Shown: one piece after another, positions 6,666-49,475 of the stretch | Layout: the number at the start of each line of letters is the position of its first letter | Position numbering within the stretch: position 1 is the stretch's first letter | Program-made: the position numbers and the translations under genes | Source of the DNA: Candidatus Latescibacterota bacterium | Lineage (GTDB): Bacteria; Latescibacterota; UBA2968; GCA-2709665 | Reading direction: 5' to 3' | NCBI GenBank assembly: GCA_965203805.1 | Contig: OZ241917.1 | Span: forward strand, 2,080,001 to 2,144,000 | DNA: 64,000 nucleotides | Notes under the pieces: model-generated | Told to the model about the DNA's origin: nothing | The model's database searches: none | The model's input: only the letters and a program-made list of their open reading frames with translations

Positions 6666-7895
6666 TTATTCCCTGTCAAACAACCCTTCTATCGCGATGA
6701 CCTCCAGCGCCTCGCCCATCGCACGGACGGCCTGGTCGATATCGGCCTCCGTGTGCGAGAAGTTCGTATAACAGACCGAATAGACGATGATCCCGCGCTT
6801 CAGTACTTCCTCGTTGAACCTGAGAAACAACCGGCCCGCGTCGGGATGGTCGAACACCAGTTGTCCGACGGGCGGCGCCCCCACGATGCTCACCGGCAGA
6901 CTCAATCTCTCGCTGCACGCATTGAAGCCTTCGTGAAGCTGTTCGCCGCGCTTCCACAACGTGCCGATCACATCCTCACGTTCATAGACATCCAGCACGG
7001 CACGCGCCGCGGCCAGTCCAAGGGTGTCTCCTCCGAACGTGGACGACACCACGCAATCCTTCACCGTCTCCATCACCGCCGCCTGTCCCACAAAACAGGA
7101 GAGCGGCACGCCGTTCGACAACCCCTTGGCAAACACCGCCAGGTCGGGAATTACCCCGAAGTACTCCTGTGCGCCTGCACGCCGAAGGCGGAACCCCGTG
7201 ACGATCTCGTCGAAAATAAGGACCGCCCCGCGCTGCTCAGTCAGCTTCCGCAATGCCTTCAGAAAGGAACGCCCCTGTTCAACCTCCGCATACGCGCAAG
7301 CGACGCTGACGGCCGCAATTTCATCCGGCGCAGCTTCAAACGCTGCCGCATACGGACCGATATCGCCCCACGGCAACGCCATGTAAGTCTTTCGAGTCGC
7401 CTCCGGCACCCCGCCTCGAGCCATTGTATTGACCCAGCCATGATATCCACAGGTCAGGATGAGTTCCCGTTCCGTAAACGCCCTTGAAAGGCGGTGGGCG
7501 GCCGCCATCGCCTCACCGCCCGTTTTCAGGAATCGGACCCGTTCCGCGCACGGCAATACCTCCACCAGCCGCTGTGCAACCTCCACCTCCAGCGGGTGGG
7601 GATAGCTGAACACGATCCCACTTTCCAATTGCTCTTTGACGGCCTCATCCACCGCAGGGAAACGGTAGCCCAGGGTTATCGGTCCCAGTCCGTTCCTGAA
7701 ATCGATGTATTCATTGCCGTCGGCGTCCCACACCCGGCATCCGTCACCCCGAACCAGGTAGCAGGGCTCCACGCCCCGCAACGCCTCTCTCGGGGCCTTG
7801 GAATGGGTCTGGGTGCCCAGCGGGATCACCTGCTGCGCCAGGTCATACAGCTCCCACGAACGCGCAACCGATCGCTCAACCTTCGTTGTCATCAT
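6666..7895 (-). CDS. Class III PLP aminotransferase (glutamate-1-semialdehyde aminotransferase-like)
   Basis: WDADGNEYID, RFLKTGGEA, LIFDEIVTGFR, VFAKGLSNG and SSTFGG motifs; start moved to MMTTK behind an AGGAGG RBS. Confidence 0.85.
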   Translation of the reverse strand: MMTTKVERSVARSWELYDLAQQVIPLGTQTHSKAPREALRGVEPCYLVRGDGCRVWDADGNEYIDFRNGLGPITLGYRFPAVDEAVKEQLESGIVFSYPHPLEVEVAQRLVEVLPCAERVRFLKTGGEAMAAAHRLSRAFTERELILTCGYHGWVNTMARGGVPEATRKTYMALPWGDIGPYAAAFEAAPDEIAAVSVACAYAEVEQGRSFLKALRKLTEQRGAVLIFDEIVTGFRLRRAGAQEYFGVIPDLAVFAKGLSNGVPLSCFVGQAAVMETVKDCVVSSTFGGDTLGLAAARAVLDVYEREDVIGTLWKRGEQLHEGFNACSERLSLPVSIVGAPPVGQLVFDHPDAGRLFLRFNEEVLKRGIIVYSVCYTNFSHTEADIDQAVRAMGEALEVIAIEGLFDRE

Positions 7896-7974
7896 CCACC
7901 TCCTGAGGAATCCTGTATAGCCGCCTCGGTCGAAAGTGGGATCCAACCCCCGCCATGTGCCCACAGCCAGCGGG

Positions 7975-9945
7975 TCAATACCCGTGGATCGAATGCCCGC
8001 CACCCGGAAACCAGACCATGTCCACAATCAACGAAACCCCCACGCCCGTGGAATAACCGACCAGAACGCCGAGGAAAAACGGCACGTATCGGCGATAGAG
8101 CGCGGCCCCGCCGATTCGCAGTATGAGGAATTTGATGGCCCAGGCCAGAAAGACCGAAAACACGGTATACCGTACCGAGGTTCCCGTACCGGCCAGCGCG
8201 AACCCCACAGGGTGGAAAGGCCACCAGGGAAACCGGTACTTCAGAAACGTCAACAACGACATCACCGCCGCGCCAATGCCGAACAGACTCAGCTGCAGAC
8301 GGTGGGGCGGCTCCGGGTTGTTCATCTGGGTCAGTACACGTCCAAAACCGGATTTGCTGTACCTCGTGAACGGCCAATCGTTGAAATTATAAGCCCCGTA
8401 CGTATATCCCAAATACAACGTAAACACAACCGAGAATATACACCCCAAACCGAAGGCCAGCAGTAGAGCAGCCAGCACACGCCGCCGCCCGTCTCGGGGG
8501 CAAACATCCGCCAATTTAGTGCCGTGGATTACCGACGGCATGAACAGGCCCTTGCCGTAGGACGCGACGCCGTTCGTAAATGCCAGCGTTGTCAGACTGG
8601 AACCCGACAGATTCCGCGACCCGAACAGCGACGTAACGAAACGTTGCGGCCCAACGGGCATGCTGATGAATACCAGTCCCACGTCCGACACGATGCGCGC
8701 AACGCCCAGATACAGGACGAATGCCGCCAGAACGAACGCACACGCCAGTACAAGACTCATCCCCGCCTGCCACCACCAGAAAACGGCGAAGAGCACGCAC
8801 GCAGCCAGCCCGAACACCGCCGTCCGGAACGACATCATCTCGTCTTTCTCGTCCAGCGGCGCTGCCTTTCCGATCGCTTTCTTGAAGACCAGCCTCAAAT
8901 GGTTCCTGGAAGTCCAGAATCCCCAACCCACCATTGCAAAAAACGCGCCCAGAGGCAGCCACTGAAAATCGCCCGACGCGTGGGACCACGAACTGGCGTT
9001 GTATCCCAGGCGGTTCAGGATTCCGCTCCGAATGATGAACAACAGATCGAAGAACCAGAGGCTGAACAGGACGTCGATATTGGCGAAATAGCAGAAAGAT
9101 ATCGTGAACATGTTGATCCGTGTCCACAGACCAGGGAAGTAGCGTTCGAACCTGATCCAGGGGCCCCAGCGGATATTCGGAATCTGCGGAAAGCCGGGGA
9201 CGAAGTAGTTGATCATATTCCAGGCCAGAATGCCGAAAGCGACGGCGAAGCCAATCCAGAAAAGCCGTGGGAACTCCAATGACCGGGCGCGTTCCGTAAG
9301 CTCCGTGACCGGGCGCAGAATCGGAAACGAAATGCGTTCGCTTTCCACCCACTGCTTGCGCAGAATCACCGCGAGGCAGACCGAACCGAAGAAAAGAGCG
9401 GTAATCAGCCCCATCCAGCAAACCACCGGCACGAACCAGGCATTCCAGGGTATGGCGTCGCCGGGCGGCAACCCCTCGAACAGGTGATTGAGCGTGCCGT
9501 TCGTGTTTCTCGGCGCCAGCCAGTGCGGAATATAGGGATGGAAGAACTCTCCCCACTGGTTCTCCGGCGTCGCAAAATAAAACGGGGCCGCGATCGCACC
9601 CAGGAAATACCCCGTCAGACCAACTGACGGAATGGCCCCGCCGACCAGACCGCCCGCGAGCACGACCAGGAGTTCCGTCGACGATAGCGCGTACCGATGC
9701 GAGAGTAAGCGGCACAGCGGGTTCAGTCCCAGGGCAAGCAGCAGGTAGGGCAGCAGCGTACCCATCGGAAAATGACTCAACGTCATGCGTGACGCGTGGA
9801 CGACGTATTCCACGTAATTCACGACGACGTTTACCCCGACGGCCAATACTCCGGCCAGCAGTACGCTGCGCAGCGTCACCGCCTGCCCGCCAGGTCGACG
9901 TCCGACATCGGTTGAAACCGCAACGTTGGATGCTTCTGCCATCAC
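7975..9945 (-). CDS. Polytopic membrane protein, DUF6785/DUF6784-like putative transporter
   Basis: Many TM segments; IPWxxWxxP, LRKQWVESERISFPI, FPWWPFHPVGF and KFLILRIGG motifs typical of this family. Confidence 0.75.
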   Translation of the reverse strand: MMAEASNVAVSTDVGRRPGGQAVTLRSVLLAGVLAVGVNVVVNYVEYVVHASRMTLSHFPMGTLLPYLLLALGLNPLCRLLSHRYALSSTELLVVLAGGLVGGAIPSVGLTGYFLGAIAAPFYFATPENQWGEFFHPYIPHWLAPRNTNGTLNHLFEGLPPGDAIPWNAWFVPVVCWMGLITALFFGSVCLAVILRKQWVESERISFPILRPVTELTERARSLEFPRLFWIGFAVAFGILAWNMINYFVPGFPQIPNIRWGPWIRFERYFPGLWTRINMFTISFCYFANIDVLFSLWFFDLLFIIRSGILNRLGYNASSWSHASGDFQWLPLGAFFAMVGWGFWTSRNHLRLVFKKAIGKAAPLDEKDEMMSFRTAVFGLAACVLFAVFWWWQAGMSLVLACAFVLAAFVLYLGVARIVSDVGLVFISMPVGPQRFVTSLFGSRNLSGSSLTTLAFTNGVASYGKGLFMPSVIHGTKLADVCPRDGRRRVLAALLLAFGLGCIFSVVFTLYLGYTYGAYNFNDWPFTRYSKSGFGRVLTQMNNPEPPHRLQLSLFGIGAAVMSLLTFLKYRFPWWPFHPVGFALAGTGTSVRYTVFSVFLAWAIKFLILRIGGAALYRRYVPFFLGVLVGYSTGVGVSLIVDMVWFPGGGHSIHGY

Positions 9946-10122: not shown

Positions 10123-10150
10123 GATTCGTTTTCGTCGAAATATGATCCGA

Positions 10151-11764
10151 TCAGACACCGGCAGCCCACGTGTTCCCACCCGCCCTCACCTTCCCCTCCC
10201 GCTTCAGGAATTCCGCGCAATGCGCGCCGCCCGCGACGCCTCCAACCACGTCCAGATCGTGGCCCATATCGAGCAGCCCGTCCCGAATGGCTTCGTCCAG
10301 CGATCGCGTTACCATCAGGGGCTCCTCCATCTGGACGTGCATCCGGGGGCCGGACACGGCCTCGAACGACGTCGCGCCGAAGTCCACGATTTTCTGCGCG
10401 ACCCGCGCGTTCACGCTCACAAGCTTTCGCCCTCCCGGCAACCCCGTCGCGACGTCGCGGTCCGGGAGGCGAATGATCAGCGGCGCCGTGTTGTTAAGCG
10501 GGCGCTTTCCCGGCCCCACCGAGTTTCGGCGTCCCGGCCGCGGATCCATCCGGCACATCCCGTGCCCCAGTATCAACCCCGTTCCGGGCACCGTGACCAG
10601 GGACCCGAATGCGCCGCCCTGCGAGATTGTCACGGACGCGACGTTACCTTCCACGTCCGCCGTGGAAACATGGAGTGTCCCCTCCGAAGAATCCCCCTCC
10701 GGCCCCGGGGACCGCCGATCCACGAGCTGCGGAAACTGCCGCACGGACTCCGCGCGTCCCGCCGCGTAGTGTTTACTCAACAGCCGCTCAACCCCGACCT
10801 CCACATGATCCGGATCCGCCAGATACAGGAGCCGGTCGCGCCACGCCAATTTCAGTACTTCGGCCAGCCGGTGCCAGTACGTCACCGTATCGTCCGGCAC
10901 GGTATCGAAGCAGTCCAGCATATTGAGCACCTGGAGGGCCGTCAGCCCACCGTTCGGCAAGATCGCCGCATAGACGGTCGCGTCGCGGTAGGTGGTCTCG
11001 TAAGGCGCCGTTACACGGGGCATATAGGCGGCCATATCGTCCCGCGAAAGCGCCCCGCCCCCGCTGCCGACGTGATCCGCGATCTTCCTCCCGATCTCTC
11101 CATCGTAGAAGTCGCGCCACCCGGCCTCGCACGCTCGCGTCAACGATTTTTCCATATCACGCCTGTGCCATCTGTCGTCCGCCTTCGGCAGACGCCCTTC
11201 CGGCATCAGATGCTTCTCTGTTTCCGGGAACCGCCGGATCACCGGTTCCAGGTGCCGAACCGCGGCGGCCGTGGAGCCGAACGGGAATCCGTTCTCCAGC
11301 AGCGCCAGCGACGGCGCCACGATATCCGACCACTTCAACCGGCCCCAGCGCTCCCACAACATCCCCATCCCCGCCATCATACCCGGCGGGCCCACCGCCT
11401 GCGGGCCGTGCACATTGGCATTGTCCCTCACGGAACAGAGGTACTCGTTCTCGTTGATCCCCTTCGGCCCGTCCCGCATCGGCGCCACGTCGTACATCGT
11501 CTCACGCGCCGATGCGGGTGCAATGGAGTTGGCATCCAGAGACCACACCTTCCCGGTCCGCCCGTCCAGCACGAGGGCGCACAGCACATATCCCATCACG
11601 CCGGTGGACTGCGGCTGCAGCATACAGCAGGCCATACTTGCCGCGGCGGCCGCGTCCATCGCGTTCCCGCCCAGGTCCAATACGCGCGCGCCCACACGGG
11701 CCGCCTCCTCCGGACCGGCGGCAACCGCGCCTCGAGACGTGAGAATTTCCTTGCCTTCAATCAT
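10151..11764 (-). CDS. ggt: Gamma-glutamyltransferase family protein
   Basis: GGNAMDAA, FYDGEIG, LKLAWRDRLLYLADP, autoprocessing Thr in EGTLHVSTADVEGN, and NSVGPGKRP. Start could be 11788. Confidence 0.85.
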   Translation of the reverse strand: MIEGKEILTSRGAVAAGPEEAARVGARVLDLGGNAMDAAAAASMACCMLQPQSTGVMGYVLCALVLDGRTGKVWSLDANSIAPASARETMYDVAPMRDGPKGINENEYLCSVRDNANVHGPQAVGPPGMMAGMGMLWERWGRLKWSDIVAPSLALLENGFPFGSTAAAVRHLEPVIRRFPETEKHLMPEGRLPKADDRWHRRDMEKSLTRACEAGWRDFYDGEIGRKIADHVGSGGGALSRDDMAAYMPRVTAPYETTYRDATVYAAILPNGGLTALQVLNMLDCFDTVPDDTVTYWHRLAEVLKLAWRDRLLYLADPDHVEVGVERLLSKHYAAGRAESVRQFPQLVDRRSPGPEGDSSEGTLHVSTADVEGNVASVTISQGGAFGSLVTVPGTGLILGHGMCRMDPRPGRRNSVGPGKRPLNNTAPLIIRLPDRDVATGLPGGRKLVSVNARVAQKIVDFGATSFEAVSGPRMHVQMEEPLMVTRSLDEAIRDGLLDMGHDLDVVGGVAGGAHCAEFLKREGKVRAGGNTWAAGV

Positions 11765-11868
11765 TCGATTCCTCGCTCGGGATCGCATGCAGCCACCACC
11801 GACTGCGCCACGGGTTTCCTATGTCTTCGACAGAACGGCACCCATGCGGGAAGCCCCGTGGACGCTGC

Positions 11869-13086
11869 TTACAATCCCTCTGCGACCTTGTTGATTGCGG
11901 CCGCGATATCCCGGATGTCGGAGGCTTCCATTTGCTCATGGATACCCCGCACGGCGACCGTCCGCAAGCCGGCCACGGCCTGAGGGGTCGTGTCCGGTCC
12001 ATAATGGTATTCCCGGTTCGTCACTCCGCAGGTGAACGGGCATCCGCTTTTTCCGTACGTTTTCTTCTCAGTGAGGAACTTTCCGCGCATGAATATCGGA
12101 TCGCCAATATAGTGGGCGCCTGTCGCCACGCCCTCGGCGGAAAGCGCCTTGCAGAACCGATCCGGATCGTGACCCGTCACGTGAAATATGTAATTCCACC
12201 ACGATACCTCCCTGTCCGCTTCCGCGGGCACGGGATCGATTCCCGGAGCGTCCGCAATCAAATCGCACAACATCCGGCCCAGGTGAATCCGGCGTTCAAC
12301 CACGGCGCGCACTTTTTCCAACTGCGCCAGGCCCACCGCTCCCTGCATTTCCGTCATCCGGTACGTCGGCGCCAGAAACCCGTGGTCCCGCTCGCCCATG
12401 TATTGATAGTCCCATCCCTTATCTGAAAACAGTTTCAGTCGGATGTACGTCTTTTCGTCATTGGTAACCGTCATCCCGCCGTCGCCGGTGGTCATATGTT
12501 TGGACTGCTGAAGGCTGAAGCACGCCACATGTCCGAACGTCCCCACGTACCGGCCCTTGAATCGTGTCGCGTGCGCCTGGCTGCAGTCCTCGATCAGGAT
12601 CAGGTTGTATCGATCGGCGATGTCCACGACCGCGTCCACGTCGCACGGCCTCCCGAAGAGATGCACCAGGACGATTGCCCGCGTCCGTCCGGTGATGACC
12701 GCTTCGATGGACTCGGGCGTCATGTTCAACGTTCTCGGGTCCACGTCGGCGAAGACCGGCACCGCGTTCTGCTGCAGGATCGGCATCACGCTGCCCGGAT
12801 CGGTAACGGGCGCGGTAATAATCTCGTCTCCCGGCTCCGGGTTCACGGCCCCAACCGCAAGGTGAATGGCGGCCGATCCTCCCGTTGAACTCTGCGCGTA
12901 CCTGACACCGTAAAAGTCTGCAAAGGCCCTTTCGAAATCCTTTACGAACCGCCCGCTTTTGCCGAACAGATTCTGGCTGCGCACGGCATCAATCAGAAAC
13001 TCTTCCTCCCGTAGTCCGAAGGGCGTCCTATCGGGAAACGGTCGGGTACGTACCTTTGGGCCTCCATGGATTGCCAGCCTTGCCAT
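11869..13086 (-). CDS. DegT/DnrJ/EryC1/StrS family aminotransferase
   Basis: MARLAIHGG start, PVFADVD, IEDCSQAH and FSLQQSKHMTTGDGG (PLP lysine). Confidence 0.9.
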   Translation of the reverse strand: MARLAIHGGPKVRTRPFPDRTPFGLREEEFLIDAVRSQNLFGKSGRFVKDFERAFADFYGVRYAQSSTGGSAAIHLAVGAVNPEPGDEIITAPVTDPGSVMPILQQNAVPVFADVDPRTLNMTPESIEAVITGRTRAIVLVHLFGRPCDVDAVVDIADRYNLILIEDCSQAHATRFKGRYVGTFGHVACFSLQQSKHMTTGDGGMTVTNDEKTYIRLKLFSDKGWDYQYMGERDHGFLAPTYRMTEMQGAVGLAQLEKVRAVVERRIHLGRMLCDLIADAPGIDPVPAEADREVSWWNYIFHVTGHDPDRFCKALSAEGVATGAHYIGDPIFMRGKFLTEKKTYGKSGCPFTCGVTNREYHYGPDTTPQAVAGLRTVAVRGIHEQMEASDIRDIAAAINKVAEGL

Positions 13087-13157
13087 TTTCTCTCCGAAAC
13101 ACAAAACGATTTTGGATAGACGAGATCCAACCCCGATAAGTTCAAAAACCTAATCAA

Positions 13158-40561: not shown

Positions 40562-41422
40562 CTATCTGTCCTTCTTCAGGAGGATATTCAACGGTCGTTT
40601 GGGCTTGTAGAGGTAGATGACGTCGGCCGGGTCGAGCATGGTATTGAATATGGCGATTTCGTCGATCTTGCCGGAATAGGCGGTCTTGTAATTGTTGAAT
40701 CGAATGGCCATTTCGTCCAGGTTCCAGGAAATGTTCCGCTGGATATCCTTCTTGCGACCGATTTCTTCGCCGTCGACGAATAGTGCGTATTCGGCATCGG
40801 TCTTACCGCTGTTGATATTGGACCAAGTGACGACGATATGGTGCCACTGATCGGATTTCCAGTTCAGCCTCTCATACCGGATTGTCCACTGTTTAACCAT
40901 CTCCTCCCCGACGTTCTGCGTCTTGTCGGGGTAACAGCCGAATCGGAGGGCGCTGGGAGGACGATCCGTCCGGCTCTTGTCGAAGTCGACGAAGATGACC
41001 GCGTCGTCCCACTTTTTGCCGATGGAGAAGGGCTCGGGGAACTTTTCCTTGAAGTCGCTGTTGGGATCCACGCTCAACCAGAAAGAAACCCCGCCGGACC
41101 ATGGGCCGCCGGCCCGATACGGAAAGTTGTCCTTGGCCTGATAGCTGAGGTAGGTTGCGCCGTTTGCAAATGAAACGAACCCGTCCTCTTTGCCACCGGT
41201 AAACTCATGCCTCGGAGGGCTGCTCGTTTCCATTGCCGCGACTGTGCCCTTCTTTTTTGTCATCGCTTCGAAACGGGACCTGTCGTCGAAGTTGGCAAAA
41301 AAGAGAACATTCGCCGCGAGCTTTTCCTCGATTTTCTTTTCGGGACCACCGCAGGAAATAAAGCAGACAGCGACAACCGGAATTGTGAACAGGCGCAGGA
41401 GGCGGGGAGGGCACCGCAACAT
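40562..41422 (-). CDS. LamG/concanavalin-like jelly-roll lipoprotein
   Basis: Lipobox FISC; VSFWL, WHHIVVTW, LFVDG and GKIDEIAIFN. Confidence 0.8.
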   Translation of the reverse strand: MLRCPPRLLRLFTIPVVAVCFISCGGPEKKIEEKLAANVLFFANFDDRSRFEAMTKKKGTVAAMETSSPPRHEFTGGKEDGFVSFANGATYLSYQAKDNFPYRAGGPWSGGVSFWLSVDPNSDFKEKFPEPFSIGKKWDDAVIFVDFDKSRTDRPPSALRFGCYPDKTQNVGEEMVKQWTIRYERLNWKSDQWHHIVVTWSNINSGKTDAEYALFVDGEEIGRKKDIQRNISWNLDEMAIRFNNYKTAYSGKIDEIAIFNTMLDPADVIYLYKPKRPLNILLKKDR

Positions 41423-41607
41423 AGGGCACTTCTCCTTTCGGGGGACGTACGTTCGATCAACCGGTTTTGCTTGCGGTTACAGCATTTCACCAATATAAAG
41501 AATGTGTGTTGGGGCGCAAGCGTTTTTCTTGTTTTCGCGCTGCGGAGGCGGCCGGCGGGCGCCGCGAAGGTCAGAAGAGTCAGATGATTAGTACAAAGGA
41601 AAATGCC

Positions 41608-41636
41608 TTGACAATAGTATTCTTATTTATTATATC
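41608..41636 (+). promoter_or_regulatory. Probable promoter of the permease operon
   Basis: TTGACA-17 nt-TATATC within an AT-rich patch; the -10 is imperfect. Confidence 0.45.
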
Positions 41637-41876
41637 CAAATTTTGCCGATTGCCGGGAGCGGCACGGATTTTGAACGAGGCCATCGGTGACCGGCGGGCG
41701 GGATCGGCGACCGTCCGCGGTGCTTTTCGTGCGGGTCCGACGCCGGCATCGGGCCGATGCTTCGGAATGCCGTCAGTACCGCGCCGGGACTGGTGTCGGA
41801 TCCTTTGCCTCGGTGCGCTGACAGGGTGGATCCGACCGGAACGAAACTTGCGTTACACAAGATTCAGGAGTTCACA

Positions 41877-44800
41877 ATGCTGCGCAAACTCGGCGGCGCG
41901 ATTCTGTGGTTGATCGCGATTTTTATGCTTTCGTCGGTTACCGTGTTCAATCCGGGACAGGTAACCGACTTTTTTATTCGTGTTTTCAATATCAAGCCGA
42001 GCGTTCCACAGGTGCGCGAGGAGAAGCCCTCCGAACGAGACGAACGCATCCAGGACTTCGCCGATCGGATCTCGGAGGCAAGTCTCCGGGAAACCGTTTC
42101 GGCTCTGGCCGGAATGGGGTCCCGCGTACCGGGGTATCCGGGGCACAGGAAGGCCTTTGATTACGTAAAAAACCGCTTCGAGACGCTGGGCCTGGAAGAT
42201 ATCACGGTCGAGGAACACCACGTTACGGTGCCCATTGACAAGGGAGCGACTCTGGAGGTTCCCGAATCGGGACTCAGGATCCGGCTGTACGGACTCTGGC
42301 CCAATCACGTACAAACGCCGTCTCTGCCGGAAGGCGGCGTTTCCGGCGCGCTGATCGACGCCGGGGACGGTTCTTTCAAAGCGCTGAATTCAAAGCCGGT
42401 GGAGAACAGCGTCGCGCTGATGCAATTCGATTGCGGCCAGAACTATCTCAACCCCCGCATGCTGGGCGCGCAGGCCGTCATCTTCTACGACAACGGCGGC
42501 GTAAGCAGAGGACAGGCCCTGGAAAAGATCCTGCAGGTACCGGTCGACGTGCCCAGGTTCTGGGTGGAGAAAGCCGACGCTGCCCGTCTGGCGGCACTCG
42601 CGCAATCCAATTCCACGCTCGTGCGGGTGACGTCCAGAATGGCGTGGGAAAAGGTCCCCACGTGGAATATCTACGCCACCCTGCCCGGCTCGGACGCCTT
42701 CGTCACGGAACGTGAAGAACGGAAGTGGAAGGACGAGATGGTTGTCCTGAGTTCATTTTACGACGCCGTCTCCGTCGTGCCCGCATTGGCGCCGGGCGCG
42801 GAGAACGCCACCGGGCTGGCTGCCCTGCTGGAAGTCGCGGCGGCGCTGAAAGACGAATCGTGGCTCGACGATTCCTCGCGTCTTGGACAACTGCCTCGAT
42901 ACACGGTAAAATTCCTGGTTACCGGCGCTCACTTCCAGGGGTTGGCCGGGGTCAATGACTTTCTGTTCAGGCATTCCAGGGAAAGCGACCACTTCCGGGA
43001 GAAGATTCCGGACGATCAGAAAATTGACTTCCGGCTCTTCGTGGGCTTCGACCTGTCGAGCGAGACGGACCAGATCGCCAGCTTCTCTCACGGAACGTTC
43101 ATCAACCCGAACTGGTCAACCAACAACTACGAAAACAACCTGCTTGCGCCCTACGCGAAGAAGTTCAACAAATACCTGGCCAAGGTCTATCCTGGCGAAA
43201 CGCGTCACGTCGACGCCGTCGCGCCGCCGAAACGAACCTGGAAGAACTACATGCCCGTCCGGCTGGGATTTGACAGCGAGGCGGTCAAATTCGTCGGCAA
43301 GGAAGGCATTACCCTTGCCAGCCCGTCCACAACGCGCGAAAAGGTGGACACGCCCGTCGACCGGGTGGAATTCGTCAACTTCACCAACCTGACCCTGCAA
43401 ACCCGCACGGCGACCGGCATGCTGCTGAAAGCCCTGGAGGATCCTGAATTCTTCCGGGTATCCAAACTCAAACTTCAGGATCTCGGACACAGTATGAAGG
43501 GGCGCATCCTCTGGTTCGAACGGGATGCCGATTTTGCGATTCCACGCGTGCCCGTACCGGGGGCTATCGTCACGTATCAGCAACCCGGGCCGGTTGCCAG
43601 CTGCGGCGGTGTACGCACCCTGATTGTGGATAAGACCACGGAGGGTCCGAGATACGTGAGCGATCGCGCCCAGGGACCCATGGTCGGCACGAAAGAGGAA
43701 GTGGAAGCCACCGGCCGATTCCAGTTCAACATCATGCGCAACCGGTTTACGAACCAGATATTGGCGTATGAAATCGACGATGACGGCAGAATCATATCGG
43801 CGCCGGACCTCGGCACGGAAGGAGAGGAGAAGTTCCCCACGCGGCAGGGTTACGGCTGGTGGGAGAACGAGATGCTGGCGGTCCTTTTCAAGTGCCGTTC
43901 TCTGAGCGTGTTCGAAATCATCGATTCCAGTTATCTTTCGGCGCTCGATTTCATGACGGTGCTGAACCCTGGCGACTCCCAGCCGATGGAATACGGGTAC
44001 TATTATATTGAAAATCAGAGCATCAAGGAAGGCGACGTCACGCGGGCGGCGGTCGCGTTTACCGCGATGAACCCTACAACCGGCAGTCCCGATCCCATCA
44101 AGATTCTGATGAGCACGGGGCTTTTCGGTGTGAAATACCTGCTGACAAACGCCCCTGAATCGCTGCTGGAAGCGCCGGTGGACAAGTGGGACGTTGACGA
44201 CGAACTGCTGGAGTTGTCCCGCGGCGCCGGATATCCTCCCGGCGTAATCCTCCATCCTTCGTACAAGGCTGCCAAGGATATGTGGGTCGTCGACGATATC
44301 CGGATGAAACAGCTTGCGCAGTACGGCATTACAAACGCCCGTCTGGAAAAGCTGCACACCCATGCGGCCGACGCGCTGAAGCGGGCGCGTGAGCATCTTG
44401 CCAACCAAGACTACGAAGGGTTTATCGCCGCGTCCAGAGAGGCGTGGGGTCTGGAAGCACGCGGATATCCTGAGGTCATGTCCACGGCAAACGACACCGT
44501 CCGCGGCATTATCTTCTATTTCATCCTCCTGCTGCCATTTTCCTTTTTCTGCGAGCGGCTGCTGTTCGGATTTCCGGATATCACCCGGCGTCTGGTCGGT
44601 TTCGCGGGAATCTTCGTGCTGTTTTTCATCATCCTTCGATACGTCCATCCGGCATTCAAGCTGAGCAGCACGCCCTACATCATTTTTCTCGCATTTGTGA
44701 TCATGGCGTTGGGCGGCATTGCGATGTTCATTGTCGTTTCCAAGTTCGGCGAAGAGGTCCGGAAGATGAAACAGGCCTCGGCGGGAACCTACGAGGCCGA

Positions 44801-46673
44801 CGTGGGCCGGTTGAGCGCGACCGCCGCTTCCATCATTCTGGGCATCTCCAATCTGCGAAAACGTCCTCTCCGTACCGGACTGACCGCCATCACCCTCACG
44901 CTGCTTACGTTTACGGCATTATCGTTCACGTCGGTACAGACGTCCATAAAATTCTACCGGTTGCCGAGGGACAACCAGCCGCCGTACCAGGGAGGCCTGG
45001 TGCGGGACCGTTCCTGGCGGGGCTTGCAGGAATCGGTGCTCCAGTACCTGACCAGCGCGTTCAAAGGCCGGGCGACCATTGTTCCCCGCGCGTGGTACCT
45101 TTCTCAGGTACGGGGCGAACGGGCGTACGTCAATTTCTCCCGCATCACCGAGCAGACCTCGTACCTCGGCTCCAGGGACACCTATGTCGACTTCGACGTG
45201 GGCATCACCACCGGAAAAGACAGCTTTGTGAACGGATTACTGGGGCTCACCGCGGAAGAACCGGAAATTACCGGGGTCGACCGGTACCTGATGAGCGGGC
45301 GATGGTTCGATCCCGGAGAAACAGATGTGTGCATTCTGCCGAACGACTTGGCGGAGCTTGTGGGCATTTTTCCGGAAGACGCCGGTACCGCGCAGATCGA
45401 GATGCTGGGCGGGGTCTTCACCGTCATTGGAATTGTGGACTCCGAAGGATTCAACAAATACAAGGATATGGACGACGAGAAGCTGACGCCGGTGGATACC
45501 GTAAAGGAAAAGGACGACCTGGCGGACGCCCAGGACCAGGACCCGCGGGTTGTCGCGGCGGCTCCAATCGAGACGTTTACGCATCTGGAATCGACCAACG
45601 TGATGATATTGCCGTATGATTACGTGCGGAATATCGGAGGCACTCTCAACTCCGTCGCTCTGGCGAACTTCGTGGACTCCCAGGGCAACGCCAGGGCGAA
45701 CTTCCTGCCCGACGTCGAAGAATTCATGACCCGCGTATCCCTGACCATGTTCGTGGGCCATGAGAACAAGGTCACCGTATACAGTTCCATCGGCTCCACG
45801 TCTCTTTCCGGACTGGGCACGCTTTTCATTCCGATTCTGATCGCGGCGCTGATCGTGCTGAATACCATGATGGGCGCCGTGTACGAACGCTTCAACGAAA
45901 TTGGCATTTATTCGGCGGTTGGCCTGGCGCCCAACCACATCGCGGCGCTGTTCCTGGCCGAGGCGACGGTATTCGCCACGGTGGGCGCCGTCTTCGGATA
46001 CCTGATCGGACAGGTGCTGGTCCTTGTGTTGTTTACCCAGGCGCAGGCCCAGGGACAGCTGCTCAGCCTGGAGTTGAATTATTCTTCGTTGTCGGCCATT
46101 TCCTCGACACTGATCGTAATGGCGACGGTTTTCCTCTCAACGCTGTACCCGGCGAAGAAGGCCGCCGATATGGCCGTGCCGGATGTGACGCGGAAGTGGG
46201 AGTTTCCGGAGCCCGAAGGCGACAGATGGGTGTTCGACTTTCCATTTACGGTTGGCGGCTCGGAAGTACTGGGTATGTACACGTATCTGACGCGTGTTTT
46301 CGAGTCGTACGGCGAGGGTTCCGTCGGCGACTTCGTGGCCGATTACGTCCGGTTTACGTCCCGTGACATGCAGGGCGAACCGCAATACGAAATCAACCTC
46401 ACGTGCTGGCTTGCGCCTTACGATCTGGGCATCAGCCAGGAGGTGGTGCTGCTGGCCATACCAACGAGGGAATACAACATCTACAAGATCGAGGTGGTTA
46501 TCAACCGGCTCAGCGGTGACGTGGCGTCCTGGAAGCGCATCAACCGGGGGTTCCTGAACGTGCTCCGCAAAAGGTTCCTGGTCTGGCGTACCATTCCACC
46601 CGAGCTGAAACACCAGTACGCCGACGAAGGCAAACGCATGCTTTCAGACCCCGTGGAAGAGGCCGCAGTATAG
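41877..46673 (+). CDS. Giant fusion: PA + degenerate M28 peptidase (nicastrin-like) ectodomain + FtsX/MacB-type ABC permease (1598 aa)
   Basis: AGGAG RBS; SRVPGYPG, PA-like segment and VVLSSFYD...APGAENATG; TM cluster; ISNLRKRPLRTGLT; FtsX motif AVYERFNEIGIYSAVGLAP...FLAEA. Confidence 0.8.
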   Translation: MLRKLGGAILWLIAIFMLSSVTVFNPGQVTDFFIRVFNIKPSVPQVREEKPSERDERIQDFADRISEASLRETVSALAGMGSRVPGYPGHRKAFDYVKNRFETLGLEDITVEEHHVTVPIDKGATLEVPESGLRIRLYGLWPNHVQTPSLPEGGVSGALIDAGDGSFKALNSKPVENSVALMQFDCGQNYLNPRMLGAQAVIFYDNGGVSRGQALEKILQVPVDVPRFWVEKADAARLAALAQSNSTLVRVTSRMAWEKVPTWNIYATLPGSDAFVTEREERKWKDEMVVLSSFYDAVSVVPALAPGAENATGLAALLEVAAALKDESWLDDSSRLGQLPRYTVKFLVTGAHFQGLAGVNDFLFRHSRESDHFREKIPDDQKIDFRLFVGFDLSSETDQIASFSHGTFINPNWSTNNYENNLLAPYAKKFNKYLAKVYPGETRHVDAVAPPKRTWKNYMPVRLGFDSEAVKFVGKEGITLASPSTTREKVDTPVDRVEFVNFTNLTLQTRTATGMLLKALEDPEFFRVSKLKLQDLGHSMKGRILWFERDADFAIPRVPVPGAIVTYQQPGPVASCGGVRTLIVDKTTEGPRYVSDRAQGPMVGTKEEVEATGRFQFNIMRNRFTNQILAYEIDDDGRIISAPDLGTEGEEKFPTRQGYGWWENEMLAVLFKCRSLSVFEIIDSSYLSALDFMTVLNPGDSQPMEYGYYYIENQSIKEGDVTRAAVAFTAMNPTTGSPDPIKILMSTGLFGVKYLLTNAPESLLEAPVDKWDVDDELLELSRGAGYPPGVILHPSYKAAKDMWVVDDIRMKQLAQYGITNARLEKLHTHAADALKRAREHLANQDYEGFIAASREAWGLEARGYPEVMSTANDTVRGIIFYFILLLPFSFFCERLLFGFPDITRRLVGFAGIFVLFFIILRYVHPAFKLSSTPYIIFLAFVIMALGGIAMFIVVSKFGEEVRKMKQASAGTYEADVGRLSATAASIILGISNLRKRPLRTGLTAITLTLLTFTALSFTSVQTSIKFYRLPRDNQPPYQGGLVRDRSWRGLQESVLQYLTSAFKGRATIVPRAWYLSQVRGERAYVNFSRITEQTSYLGSRDTYVDFDVGITTGKDSFVNGLLGLTAEEPEITGVDRYLMSGRWFDPGETDVCILPNDLAELVGIFPEDAGTAQIEMLGGVFTVIGIVDSEGFNKYKDMDDEKLTPVDTVKEKDDLADAQDQDPRVVAAAPIETFTHLESTNVMILPYDYVRNIGGTLNSVALANFVDSQGNARANFLPDVEEFMTRVSLTMFVGHENKVTVYSSIGSTSLSGLGTLFIPILIAALIVLNTMMGAVYERFNEIGIYSAVGLAPNHIAALFLAEATVFATVGAVFGYLIGQVLVLVLFTQAQAQGQLLSLELNYSSLSAISSTLIVMATVFLSTLYPAKKAADMAVPDVTRKWEFPEPEGDRWVFDFPFTVGGSEVLGMYTYLTRVFESYGEGSVGDFVADYVRFTSRDMQGEPQYEINLTCWLAPYDLGISQEVVLLAIPTREYNIYKIEVVINRLSGDVASWKRINRGFLNVLRKRFLVWRTIPPELKHQYADEGKRMLSDPVEEAAV

Positions 46674-46771
46674 CAACCCGTTGACAGGTAACGTGTATAT
46701 CAGTCACCCGGCAGGTTGACACGGGCAATCTGTTTCCGGGAAAGAACCCTCGCTGCTCCCAATGAGGAGGG

Positions 46772-48826
46772 GTGGTTTTGGCAATCGATCCCAAGGATCC
46801 CAGAGAAGAGCAGGAACAGTACGAACATATCATGCCGGCGGACGCGCCGTTTGAAGATGGCTTCAATATGAAGACCCTGTGGGCGACGCTGTTCGTGGGG
46901 CTGGTGATGCTGCCCGGCGCGATCTACCTCGGGTTGGTTACCGGACAGAATATGGCCGGCGCATCCGAATGGGTGACCATCATCCTCTTCCTGGAGATCG
47001 CAAAGCGGTCCTTTGTGCGGCTGAAAACACAGGAGGTTCTGGTCATCTACTGGGTCGCCGGCGGGCTGCTTGGCGTGGGTGTGCGGCTGGGCAGTGCGGC
47101 GCTGGTGTACGGCGGTCCCTTCGGCGGATTGATCTGGGACCAATACCTGATCCAATCTCCGGCGGCGAGAGGGCTCGCGGATTATATCCCGGACTGGGTG
47201 GTTCCCCGGATCAGCGAACATCCGGAAATCTACGCGGAACGGACGTTCCTTCACGCCGCGTGGCTGAAGCCCATTGGCATCCTTGTCGCGTTGACGCTCT
47301 TAAGCAATACCGCAAGACTGTCGCTTGGGTACGTGATGTTTCGTATTACGAGCGACATCGAACGGTTGCCGTTTCCGCTGGCGCCGGTACAAGCCCGCGG
47401 GGCCACGGCGCTTGCCGAGACATCGGCCAAGCAGGAGGGCTGGAGATGGCGGGTATTCAGTACCGGCGCGTGCATCGGACTGGTCTGGGGCCTGCTCTAC
47501 GTTGTCGTCCCAACGCTTTCCAGCATCTTCCTGACCGATACGGTCCAGATTCTGCCCATTCCCTGGATCGATTTTACGGAACAGATCAAAACCATCCTGC
47601 CTGCCGCGCTGTTTGGAATTGCAACCGACCTGGGACACCTGATTGTCGGATTCGTGCTGCCGTTCTGGGTGGTTATCGGGTCGTTTGCCGGCGCCGTCCT
47701 GGGCAACCTGGTTGTCAATCCGTTTCTCTACAAATACGAAATCCTGGACCGCTGGTCTGCCGGGATGACGGCAATCCCGACGTCGATCTCCAACCAGTTC
47801 GACTTCTGGCTGAGTTTCGGAATCGGCACGTCGTTCGTCATCGCGTTCACGGGATTTTACCAGGTGTTTCGGGTGCTTGCGGAACAACGCCGTCAGAAAC
47901 GGGAAACCGGACATCATACAACCGGCATCGACCTCGAAGACCTGCCGGAGGGCCGCTCGGATATGAAGATGATCTACCCGATTCTGGCCTGGGGCGCCGC
48001 CACGCTGGGCTTCATTGTGATGTGCCAGATGCTGGTTCCGGAATTCCACTGGGGCTGGGTTGTGTTCTTCGGACTCATCTACACGCCGATATCTTCTTAT
48101 ATCGGCGCACGAATGATCGGCCTGACCGGAAGTCCGTACGGGGCGAGTATTCCCTACTTGCGGGAGGCGGGGATTCTTCTGTCCGGGTACAAGGGCGTCG
48201 CGGTCTGGTTCGCGCCCCTTCCCCTGCACGACCACGGCCTTGCGGTCCCGACATACAAACAGATGGAGTTGACCAAAACGAAATTCGTCAGTTACGTGAA
48301 ATTGACCGCGGTAACCATGGTCGTGATCTTTATTTTCAGCTTCATCTTCTGGGAATTCATCTGGCGACTGGGGCCCATTCCCTCGTCAAGCTATTACTAT
48401 GTGCAGACCTTCTGGCCATACGACGCCACCATGACCACGATGTGGCTGAAGTCGACCATGCCGGACCTCGAAGGTCAGGGAACCGTTGGCGTCGAGCTCC
48501 TTAAAGACATCATCAAGCCGGAAATCATCGGCGCGGGATTCGCCGTCGGCGGCCTCATGTATCTGATCCTGGCCGCGTTGAAAGCGCCGACGCTGTTCTT
48601 TTTCGGATTTGTGGGCTCGCTTGCCACCTGGCCGCATTTCGTCATCTTGCAGTTCGCCGGCGCGCTCCTCGGGCGTTACTACTTCTCCAGACGGTTCGGC
48701 GAATCCAAATGGAGGGCCTACGCGCCGATTCTGCTGGCCGGTTATTACTGCGGCATGGGGCTCATCGGGATGACGTCGGTTTCGGTCGTGCTGATTTCAA
48801 AGGCCGTTTCCCAGGTCGTCTTCTAG
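46772..48826 (+). CDS. OPT-like polytopic peptide transporter
   Basis: Many TM segments; FEDGF...MLPGAIYL, DIERLPFPLAPV, IPWIDFT and WRAYAPILLAG; GAGGAGG RBS (start may be TTG 46778). Confidence 0.7.
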   Translation: MVLAIDPKDPREEQEQYEHIMPADAPFEDGFNMKTLWATLFVGLVMLPGAIYLGLVTGQNMAGASEWVTIILFLEIAKRSFVRLKTQEVLVIYWVAGGLLGVGVRLGSAALVYGGPFGGLIWDQYLIQSPAARGLADYIPDWVVPRISEHPEIYAERTFLHAAWLKPIGILVALTLLSNTARLSLGYVMFRITSDIERLPFPLAPVQARGATALAETSAKQEGWRWRVFSTGACIGLVWGLLYVVVPTLSSIFLTDTVQILPIPWIDFTEQIKTILPAALFGIATDLGHLIVGFVLPFWVVIGSFAGAVLGNLVVNPFLYKYEILDRWSAGMTAIPTSISNQFDFWLSFGIGTSFVIAFTGFYQVFRVLAEQRRQKRETGHHTTGIDLEDLPEGRSDMKMIYPILAWGAATLGFIVMCQMLVPEFHWGWVVFFGLIYTPISSYIGARMIGLTGSPYGASIPYLREAGILLSGYKGVAVWFAPLPLHDHGLAVPTYKQMELTKTKFVSYVKLTAVTMVVIFIFSFIFWEFIWRLGPIPSSSYYYVQTFWPYDATMTTMWLKSTMPDLEGQGTVGVELLKDIIKPEIIGAGFAVGGLMYLILAALKAPTLFFFGFVGSLATWPHFVILQFAGALLGRYYFSRRFGESKWRAYAPILLAGYYCGMGLIGMTSVSVVLISKAVSQVVF

Positions 48827-49444: not shown

Positions 49445-49475
49445 ATGGCGGCCCCCGGCGGGGTCGCCATTTTTT
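49445..49475 (+). terminator. Rho-independent terminator
   Basis: ATGGCGGCCCC-cggc-GGGGTCGCCAT then TTTTT. Confidence 0.75.

Follow-up and report, generated by a model that had tools for sequence, protein, structure and literature searches.

The present study concerns two adjacent genes, here called A and B, which lie on the forward strand of a 64,000-nucleotide stretch of DNA (the window; positions 2,080,001–2,144,000) from a Candidatus Latescibacterota genome assembled as a single contig of 5.87 Mb. Gene A encodes a protein of 1598 amino acids (aa) in which a PA/M28-like ectodomain is joined to an extra cluster of transmembrane (TM) helices, a MacB/FtsX permease module and a cytoplasmic tail, and gene B encodes a 684-aa polytopic protein with a predicted OPT/YSL fold. 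Both genes had been proposed in a first-pass annotation made from the letters of the sequence, and analysis of open reading frames (ORFs), Pfam searches and hydropathy bore out their positions and architecture, with B beginning 98 nt after the stop codon of A. Gene A occupies one ORF, 41757–46673, within which we preferred the ATG at 41877 because an AGGAG is present at 41866–41870, the resulting product is 100% identical with a 1598-aa database protein, and homologues, of which the protein database holds more than 1334, align from residue 1. The true start of gene B may be an alternative in-frame ATG at 46832, which would widen the gap to 158 nt. No terminator-like hairpin was found between A and B. 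The features of the locus are collected in Table 1.

Table 1. Features of the gene A–B locus, with positions in the window and, for site codons, residue counts at the corresponding column in 125 homologues
Feature	Position	Strand	Basis or column count
Gene A: PA/M28-like ectodomain, extra TM cluster, MacB/FtsX module, cytoplasmic tail	41877–46673	+	ORF, Pfam, ribosome-binding site
N-terminal membrane anchor, residues 1–24, MLRKLGGAILWLIAIFMLSSVTVF	41877–41948	+	Hydropathy peak at residues 1–19
Predicted M28-fold domain with inserted PA domain, residues ~60–560	42054–43556	+	Pfam, AlphaFold model, VIA-align, Foldseek, profile
PA domain	42345–42590	+	
Pfam M28 match	42720–43166	+	
Span of the apparently remodelled site	42756–43349	+	HMMER alignments to 2ek8, BSAP and AAP; columns in 125 homologues; paralogues
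Codon of F294	42756–42758	+	Y 61, F 39, H 25
Codon of D296	42762–42764	+	D 125
Codon of E309	42801–42803	+	E 122, D 3
Codons of H352 and F353	42930–42935	+	352: H 125; 353: F 123, H 2
Codon of D392	43050–43052	+	D 125
Codon of D491	43347–43349	+	D 125
Second ectodomain half, residues 561–870: beta-rich, then long helices toward the membrane	43557–44486	+	Secondary structure of the model
Extra three-TM cluster, residues 874–953	44496–44735	+	Hydropathy; many invariant residues in 38 homologues
MacB/FtsX (type VII ABC) permease module	44880–46169	+	Pfam, partial NCBIfam, PDB sequence matches
FtsX TM1	44880–44936	+	
FtsX periplasmic domain	44937–45791	+	
FtsX TM2–4 with coupling-helix motif	45825–46169	+	
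Conserved cytoplasmic C-terminal domain, residues 1432–1598 (167 aa)	46170–46670	+	Invariant residues in 38 homologues
Gene B: 684-aa polytopic permease of predicted OPT/YSL fold	46772–48826	+	ORF, Pfam matches of the family, model, Foldseek, hhalign
Secreted Arg/Gly-rich coiled protein, 156 aa	48945–49415	+	Translation: signal-like N-terminus, Arg/Gly-rich ends, helical middle

Hydropathy analysis of gene A gave the four-helix layout of an FtsX permease, with TM1 at residues 1002–1020, TM2–4 at 1317–1423 and 285 extracytoplasmic residues between them. An ectodomain of approximately 850 residues precedes a cluster of three further helices (874–892, 906–924 and 935–953), which a cytoplasmic linker joins to FtsX TM1; the topology is self-consistent, placing the head and the MacB-type domain outward and the linker and tail inward. 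Pfam FtsX matched residues 1317–1431 above its cut-off (E 2.9e-14), and the NCBIfam models for FtsX, ADOP, LolC, LolE and MacB all matched partially and far under their cut-offs. Searched against PDB sequences, the whole protein found matches confined to the FtsX part, at residues ~1297–1435, to YtrF (2.4e-8), MacB (3.1e-7), LolC (2e-5), LolF and, weakly, FtsX. The MacB_PCD family (PF12704), precomputed in 11 of the 120 homologues listed, gave no match with the window's A at E<=0.1.

In MacB, as described in parts of PMC5985334, four TM helices and a periplasmic Porter/Sabre domain serve work outside the membrane rather than transport across it, and the major coupling helix that contacts the nucleotide-binding domain (NBD) sits between TM2 and TM3. 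Residues 1337–1362 of gene A (ERFNEIGIYSAVGLAPNHIAALFLAEA) align with the same stretch of YtrF and MacB and are largely invariant in the family, and the motif ER..EIG between TM2 and TM3 is aligned in YtrF, MacB and LolC. From these alignments, gene A is predicted to carry the coupling helix of ATP-binding cassette (ABC) systems of type VII between TM2 and TM3. Among 38 homologues, the most distant of them 39% identical, neither this motif nor many of the TM residues vary, which argues for a retained interaction with an NBD. A minor coupling helix contacting the NBD is placed just after TM4 in MacB by the same source (PMC5985334, in part), and it is at this point that the C-terminal tail of gene A begins. 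The tail contains many invariant Trp, Phe and Pro residues and had no Pfam, NCBIfam or usable ESM Atlas match. A stand-alone module of FtsX plus tail was considered in view of 325 shorter database matches and rejected, as the uncut ORFs in the 80 metagenome loci described below are all full fusions of 1456–2671 aa. Four of these loci (L159, L161, L163 and L170) encode extra-long forms of 2419–2671 aa with ~900–1000 additional N-terminal residues.

Within the head, Pfam recognized a PA domain at residues 157–238 with a score below the cut-off (E 0.0025; 18.4 bits against 23.9) and Peptidase_M28 at 282–430 with a score above it (E 1.2e-6; 28.8 bits against 21.3). An AlphaFold model of residues 25–870, made with 39 aligned homologues, had a mean predicted local distance difference test score (pLDDT) of 88.1 and a predicted template modelling score (pTM) of 0.88. 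We compared the head with known structures by Foldseek and VIA-align, reading the best 50 matches of each (lowest listed VIA-align Z 24.2). Foldseek ranked first the PA-containing M28 aminopeptidases 2ek8 (7.5e-23), BSAP (6hc6; 1.7e-21) and PaAP (8acr; 6.5e-21), followed by transferrin receptor 1 (TfR1; from 1.8e-19) and GCPII-type enzymes (near 1e-16). VIA-align gave Z 28.2 for AAP (1amp; root-mean-square deviation 2.7, 271 residues aligned), 27.4 for BSAP (6hc7; 381 aligned), 26.9 for 2ek8, 25.1 for TfR1 (3kas; 410 aligned) and ~25 for glutaminyl cyclases. On the strength of this model, the head has the M28 alpha/beta fold. The second half of the ectodomain (561–870) had no Pfam match, and the fold matches essentially cover model residues 28–513.

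The first-pass annotation had likened the head both to M28 peptidases and, specifically, to nicastrin. The former likeness held, the closest structures being the bacterial PA-M28 aminopeptidases, AAP, glutaminyl cyclases and TfR1, and the latter did not. Pfam Nicastrin gave no match with gene A at E<=0.1, and nicastrin was absent from the 50 matches listed by Foldseek and the 50 listed by VIA-align. A profile of the M28 region, built from 20 sequences and run against PDB sequences, recovered 2ek8 (2.8e-15), BSAP (4.2e-11), the E151H mutant of AAP (2anp; 2.9e-7) ahead of wild-type AAP (8.5e-6), nicalin (5.5e-5, over the GAEN...AHF stretch) and TfR1 (7.8e-4). Nicalin is a nicastrin-like protein of the endoplasmic reticulum. 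Even at E<=10, where the profile matched 30 PDB sequences, none of these was a chain of nicastrin. A specific likeness to nicastrin is therefore not supported; the feature in common is the M28 fold with an inserted PA/apical domain.

HMMER alignments to 2ek8, BSAP and AAP place the motifs SFYD (from residue 293), GAENATG (from 307) and AHFQGLAG (from 351) of gene A on the H-x-D, GA-x-D-D/N and A-E-E motifs of the M28 enzymes, and so confirm that the metal and catalytic positions are substituted, as first noted. We take the metal ligands of AAP to be His97, Asp117, Glu152, Asp179 and His256, with Glu151 as general base, a numbering partly backed by PDB titles that name 'Glutamate 151 to Histidine' and 'D118N'. 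By these alignments His97 corresponds to F294, Asp99 to D296, Asp117 to E309, Glu151 to H352 and Glu152 to F353. His256 probably corresponds to D491, the D-T-P-x-D of the family being set against H-T-x-x-D in alignment segments that are themselves non-significant, and Asp179 would, from the position of its motif, correspond to D392. An intact binuclear zinc site is therefore not what the alignments reveal: at the five ligand positions gene A has F294, E309, F353, D392 and D491, and the general-base position is His352 throughout.

To describe these positions across the family we counted residues in 125 homologues (Table 1), consisting of those 116 of the 119 listed database homologues that exceed 1400 aa, the window's A and eight proteins from the loci. 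The two proteins with histidine at position 353 are A3 and A4, paralogues from the same genome as the window, which thus have His-His at 352–353. The first-pass annotation had called the head a dead peptidase; this label is unproven, because the replacement residues D296, E309, H352, F353, D392 and D491 are invariant or almost so. To judge from these columns, the site looks remodelled and functional, unlike the decayed site of a pure receptor; it is a fair expectation that its carboxylate/histidine pocket still binds a metal or a cationic group, and the head may retain catalysis. The PDB title of the AAP Glu151-to-His mutant 2anp calls that enzyme 'functional'.

These data also bear on the earlier proposal that gene A encodes a catalytically dead, nicastrin-like receptor which gates substrates for its partner as nicastrin does in gamma-secretase. 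The replacement of the residues equivalent to H97, E151, E152 and H256 is what such a receptor would show, and non-catalytic M28-fold proteins are indeed among the relatives recovered (TfR1 by structure, nicalin by profile). We nevertheless consider the proposal improbable: nicastrin itself was missed by all of the searches above, the substituted positions are invariant rather than degenerate, and the conserved partner has a transporter fold and is not presenilin-like, though no search aimed at a presenilin-type gene was made. Furthermore, 25 of the 125 homologues have histidine at the H97-equivalent position and A3 and A4 have one at the E152-equivalent position, which makes metal binding plausible in parts of the family.

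The window's B had no Pfam or NCBIfam match at E<=0.1, OPT (PF03169) included, and nothing meaningful among PDB sequences. A sequence search with B found 927 cluster representatives at E<=0.001, and when the window's B was aligned with 67 relatives, most of them of full length, 27 of the 68 sequences matched PF03169 at E<=0.01, the best at 1.3e-17; the same family is precomputed on relatives 73% identical with B, and some database sources name B relatives 'peptide transporter'. A model of B (pLDDT 91.4, pTM 0.92) matched barley Yellow Stripe 1 (HvYS1) in Foldseek (7wst_A, E 2.3e-9; 7wsr_A, 4.0e-9; TM scores 0.61/0.68) at 13–14% sequence identity. These two entries were the sole PDB matches at E<=0.001, the next having E 0.037. 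Gene B is, on this model, a divergent OPT/YSL-fold permease, and its description as OPT-like is upheld through its relatives and its fold rather than through a Pfam match of its own. YS1 is described by its authors, in the part of PMC9691689 concerned, as a homodimer for which an elevator-like model is discussed.

Gene B is also a full-length homologue of the DUF6785/DUF6784 proteins (hhalign probability 97.1%, E 5.3e-11, 554 columns). The genome holds 23 DUF6785 genes, two B-type genes and four A-type genes. We scanned the neighbours of the DUF6785 genes (78 of 119 candidate neighbour ORFs, omitting DUF genes, nested duplicates and some outer ORFs) and found heparinase II/III-like proteins, sulfatase, GFO/IDH/MocA oxidoreductases, xylose-isomerase-like barrels, UxuA, FG-GAP/carrageenase-like propellers, PhyH dioxygenases, amidohydrolases, aminotransferases and TonB. 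This setting suggests nutrient importers that differ in their substrates; taken alone, it gives no particular indication of peptides.

One of the 23 DUF6785/DUF6784 genes lies in the window itself, at 7975–9945 on the reverse strand, 32 kb upstream of gene A. Its neighbours are a class-III aminotransferase (6666–8027), a 1249-aa TPR protein (2848–6597), an unnamed 613-aa ORF (10142–11983) and a DegT-type aminotransferase (11869–13104), and the stretch around it has the highest AT skew in the window (0.284). Long forms of the B family, of ~800–1080 aa, also occur (e.g. L070:5761-8181 (-), L088:6839-9718 (-) in genome G003, and proteins P0243–P0247), with an insertion between the parts that align with residues ~565 and ~575 of B; in the G003 form the inserted part matches the Reg_prop (two-component regulator propeller) repeat. 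In the window's genome, directly downstream of B3 at L070:3929-5740 (-), is a 603-aa protein with four BMC shell domains, followed by a DHDPS-family gene.

The linkage of gene A to OPT-superfamily genes, which the first-pass annotation had left to be surveyed across genomes, is conserved. We examined 60 loci from genomes, 54 of which have at least 2.2 kb downstream of A, and 80 metagenome loci obtained with a different query, 60 of which have at least 2.5 kb. Among the 54 genome loci, 49 have B downstream of A in the same orientation and no more than 550 nt away; in two more (L048 and L049) it came after 4.7 and 2.2 kb with extra genes inserted, in another two (L052 and L060) a DUF6785 gene 2.5–2.7 kb upstream of A stood in place of B, and the DNA examined for L053 had neither. 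In the metagenome loci B followed within 700 nt in 41 of the 60, at 750 nt in one and at 4.6 kb in one, and B-type or DUF6785-type genes occurred elsewhere in the locus in nine. The window's genome contains the arrangements A1–B (the window), DUF6785–A2–DUF6785, ATPase–DUF6785–A3–B3 and TPR–DUF6785–A4, so that each of the four paralogues adjoins an OPT-superfamily gene; by comparison of positions, all remaining FtsX genes of the genome are more than 5 kb from any such gene.

In a sample of the phylum, 138 of 151 genomes, representing 13 of 14 families, had A, at one to six matches per genome, and 47 of 61 genomes had B. The two share a gap, each being found in none of 13 genomes of one family (f10), and both were present in all of the other sampled families. 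Records of A homologues belong to Candidatus Latescibacterota, with some labelled Gemmatimonadota. As most of the loci come from one phylum, are orthologous and have a wider neighbourhood conserved within the order, the linkage counts are not independent events, and this weighs against reading too much into them. Evidence beyond synteny is provided by distant loci (L050, L054 and L055), in which the pairing is kept and all other neighbours differ, together with the four old paralogues.

The A–B pair is flanked upstream by a Laminin_G_3 protein and a TPR protein on the opposite strand, and downstream by a metallophosphoesterase and a DUF255/thioredoxin protein. The gene for the 156-aa protein, which has no Pfam match, is found 3' of B in most orthologous loci and is probably the last member of the A–B transcription unit; the strongest terminator-like hairpin of the region (49445–49470; 11 pairs, eight of them G-C, then a T run) follows it. 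The leader region 41200–42000 had no Rfam match at E<=1 and hence offers no riboswitch hint of a ligand.

It had been noted that no ABC ATPase adjoins the pair, and this holds: Pfam found no ABC_tran domain in the neighbours of A and B, and the window contains no LolD/MacB-type ATPase. A search for a cognate ATPase elsewhere in the genome yielded two candidates as the nearest LolD-type matches, at 2,417,105 beside a short FtsX gene and at 5,853,573 beside A3, neither of which is linked to the window's A. The latter lies 0.6 kb upstream of DUF6785–A3–B3 with no other FtsX gene nearby, and likewise in genome G018, where it is 2.6 kb upstream of the A3 orthologue. Both ATPase types score best against LolD (~1e-68), under the curated cut-off, and nearly as well against the darobactin-export and DevA ATPase models.

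Surveying the neighbourhoods for a conserved ATPase, second permease or accessory genes, we found all three in several lineages, with an ATPase near few of the A loci. Distant loci have DUF6785–TPR–A–B or A–B–TPR–DUF6785. In genomes with a single A (L086, L087, L089 and L090, a biased sample picked for having A and an ATPase on one contig) the order is DUF6785 (656 aa)–TPR (~240 aa)–A–B–X–Y–short FtsX–ABC ATPase, in which X has ~294 aa, Y 125 aa, the short FtsX 228 aa and the ATPase 245 aa. Protein X fell in no family, ESM Atlas giving unnamed clusters, and Y is PqqD-like (1.5e-10); the peptide-binding PqqD family is known from the maturation of peptide natural products. The short FtsX does not belong to the FtsX cell-division equivalog. 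Among the 80 metagenome loci a LolD-like ATPase was present in five (L131, L161, L163, L165 and L143), with A–B–short FtsX–ATPase in L131 and A–B–X–Y–ATPase, without a short FtsX ORF between Y and the ATPase, in L161 and L163. A LolD-like ATPase thus ends the A–B cluster in L131, L161, L163 and L165 as well as in the four single-A loci. The cluster ATPases are 71–76% identical with the ATPase at 2,417,105 of the window's genome and 57–62% identical with that beside A3. The ATPase 4–5 kb downstream of A in the single-copy genomes is no more than a candidate for the cognate one, as it has a short FtsX of its own and is an orthologue of the 2,417,105 ATPase. From these comparisons a LolD-type ATPase for A is plausible, and it is attractive to imagine that A and the short FtsX might pair as a heterodimer like LolC/LolE.

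The X–Y pair, with X of ~294–328 aa and a PqqD-like Y of 125–156 aa, travels with A–B in several lineages (e.g. L087:12235-13533) and is found apart from any A at 649,613–650,965 (-) in the window's genome; the Atlas clusters of X come from Thermodesulfobacteriota, Gemmatimonadota and Poribacteria. FtsX-domain matches in the window's genome number 47, of which ~20 fall in duplicated ADOP-like permeases of ~800 aa, several in tandem around 3.57–3.60 Mb, against only 13 ABC ATPase matches at E<=1e-30 to a LolD-type query. From these two totals it follows that most of its FtsX permeases lack a dedicated ATPase gene.

The reading that we put forward, tentatively and with a confidence a little short of even, is that of an ATP-driven type VII ABC mechanotransducer whose remodelled, cis-fused M28 head binds and perhaps processes a periplasmic ligand for an OPT-type importer. 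Gene A would be the permease subunit of this MacB/FtsX-family system, with its periplasmic effector, the PA and M28-fold head, fused in cis and held over the membrane by the N-terminal anchor on one side and the cluster of three additional TM helices on the other. The coupling helix between FtsX TM2 and TM3 would engage a LolD/MacB-type ATPase whose gene lies elsewhere in the genome, and the periplasmic domains would be driven by the binding and hydrolysis of ATP, in the manner of MacB, LolCDE, FtsEX-EnvC and YbbAP-TesA. The head, which is most likely still ligand-binding because its Asp/Glu/His/Asp/Asp constellation is invariant, would bind and possibly process an amino-terminal or peptide-like ligand, and the ligand or its product would be taken up by the adjacent OPT/YSL-fold secondary transporter, i.e. 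B or, at other copies, a DUF6785 paralogue. A peptide theme recurs in the aminopeptidase fold, the OPT fold, the PqqD-like gene of the extended cluster and a gene for the signal-peptide peptidase SppA upstream of A in L163. Of all this, the data themselves give the architecture, the folds, the altered yet conserved site, the kinship of B and DUF6785 with OPT and the conserved linkage; we infer the ATP dependence of the window's copy, the nature of the ligand, the direction of its flow and any physical contact between A and B.

Several observations weigh against this proposal. No ATPase is linked to the window's A, and none is near A in 59 of the 60 genome loci and 75 of the 80 metagenome loci. 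The A3-type ATPase is not beside A in four of five genomes, being 20 kb off in G028 and unlinked in G057, G009 and G002, and the ATPase at 2,417,105 adjoins a 234-aa FtsX gene and an S41 peptidase gene far from any A (L091). Since most of the extended clusters pair the ATPase with the short FtsX, it may serve that protein and not A. Eight of the 60 metagenome loci have no OPT-like gene in the DNA available. The DUF6785 neighbourhoods hint at sugar-derived substrates at least as much as at peptides, and catalysis by the head is doubtful because three of the five canonical metal ligands and the catalytic glutamate are replaced. Finally, the type VII ABC systems described so far, in the parts of PMC12646458 and PMC5985334 that treat them, work without secondary importers, so that the proposed coupling has no precedent there.

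The scarcity of linked ATPases is what would be expected if there were no machine at all, gene A being an anchored periplasmic binding or hydrolytic protein whose ATPase-less FtsX part has become a scaffold or signalling anchor, and A and B merely co-transcribed members of a nutrient regulon that are coupled neither physically nor mechanically. The excess of FtsX domains over close LolD-type ATPases in the genome fits this explanation, as does the conserved tail that begins just where the minor coupling helix of MacB contacts the NBD (PMC5985334, in part). It leaves unaccounted for the invariance of ER..EIG and of many TM residues and the recurrence of LolD-type ATPases at the ends of A–B clusters in several lineages, and we regard it as unlikely.

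The direction of transport in our preferred proposal, i.e. uptake, also has to be set against an outward one, to which we assign a similarly low likelihood. Here A, alone or as a heterodimer with the short FtsX, would extract or expel a peptide, lipopeptide or other envelope molecule from the inner membrane or the periplasm, which the M28-like head would trim or hand over, and the OPT-like gene would retrieve breakdown products or merely be co-regulated. According to parts of PMC5985334, MacB and its homologues act extracytoplasmically and are not thought to move substrates across the cytoplasmic membrane, and in YbbAP-TesA, as presented in part of PMC12646458, substrates extracted by such a transporter pass to the hydrolase paired with it. 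The near-equal scores of the ATPases on the darobactin-export, DevA and LolD models and the PqqD-like gene of the extended cluster point the same way. However, the scanned loci showed neither a MacA-like adaptor nor an outer-membrane duct nor an enzyme of peptide maturation, the three to six A paralogues per genome and the catabolic setting of DUF6785 fit nutrient acquisition better, and the tight, phylum-wide pairing with an importer-type fold would be left unexplained.

A bolder form of the uptake proposal would unite A and the OPT-superfamily protein encoded beside it in a single hybrid machine for uptake, in which the ATP-driven type VII ABC mechanotransducer has the remodelled M28 head as its built-in receptor or processor, and the head captures a periplasmic ligand and delivers it to, or opens, the secondary OPT/YSL-fold permease. 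We think this unlikely, and we are just as doubtful that the short FtsX, the LolD-like ATPase, the PqqD-like protein and the unnamed ~300-aa protein are further parts of it. A complex prediction with residues 871–1030 and 1300–1440 of A and the whole of B returned scores of 0.01 and 0.02 (mark 0.32), which speak neither for nor against binding. If true, such a machine would be a new way to couple ABC energy to a non-ABC transporter.

Database names of the relatives are 'hypothetical protein', 'M28 family peptidase', 'FtsX-like permease family protein' and 'peptide transporter'. We found no literature that treats DUF6785, links Latescibacteria to FtsX or combines M28 with FtsX and a PA domain; a single paper, a transporter census, mentions both the OPT family and FtsX, and in the literature searched no OPT permease encoded with a type VII ABC-like protein and no orthologous system is described, in agreement with the first-pass view that the system is uncharacterized. 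The pair points to an envelope system not described so far, one that probably captures nutrients and takes them up. Type VII ABC systems power extracytoplasmic work such as efflux, lipoprotein release, activation of cell-wall hydrolases and lipid hydrolysis, and the A family would add to them a form whose permease carries its effector as part of the same polypeptide. This effector derives from an aminopeptidase with its metal site rebuilt, not lost, and the constant genetic partner has an importer-type OPT/YSL fold. The A family is near-universal and multi-copy in the sampled genomes of the uncultured phylum Latescibacterota, and the system is a multi-copy hallmark of this phylum that occurs also in records labelled as other phyla. 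The analysis also ties the Pfam families DUF6785 and DUF6784 to the OPT superfamily, with neighbourhoods that suggest a nutrient-importer role. If the coupling is real, it would provide a testable model of substrate capture and uptake in Latescibacterota, a new architecture and a new M28-derived site chemistry to characterize.

Among known systems, gene A most resembles the type VII ABC permeases (MacB, LolCDE, FtsEX-EnvC, YbbAP-TesA and YtrF), with which it shares the order TM1, periplasmic domain, TM2–4, a TM2–TM3 stretch that aligns with YtrF, MacB and LolC, and the LolD/MacB-type ATPases found in clusters related to A–B. The closest described concept, as set out in part of PMC12646458, is that of FtsEX-EnvC and YbbAP-TesA, in which an ATP-driven permease serves a periplasmic hydrolase-like partner. 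Unlike these systems, gene A has its effector fused in cis as an M28-fold head in an ectodomain of ~850 residues, four additional TM helices, a 167-aa cytoplasmic tail and mostly no adjacent ATPase, and the gene that constantly accompanies it encodes an OPT-superfamily permease in place of an adaptor, a chaperone or an activator of amidases. The head has the fold and the PA-in-M28 arrangement of the aminopeptidases of Aneurinibacillus AM-1 (2ek8), Bacillus subtilis (BSAP/YwaD, 6hc6) and Pseudomonas aeruginosa (PaAP, 8acr), and the M28 fold of Aeromonas/Vibrio AAP (1amp), but differs from them in the replacements H to F/Y, D to E, E to H, E to F and H to D, and in being tethered to the membrane on both sides and followed by ~310 further ectodomain residues. 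With TfR1, nicalin and nicastrin it shares an M28 fold with an apical/PA domain, the loss of the canonical metal site and membrane anchoring, whereas its former active-site positions are invariant and it is partnered by a transporter instead of a protease or a translocon. The model of gene B matches HvYS1 of the OPT/YSL family (PF03169; 7wst/7wsr) over its whole length, yet the window's B has no PF03169 match of its own and is encoded with a type VII ABC-like protein. The DUF6785 and DUF6784 proteins, finally, replace or join B beside the A paralogues, but form a separate and much expanded family (23 genes against two), mostly in catabolic clusters without A.

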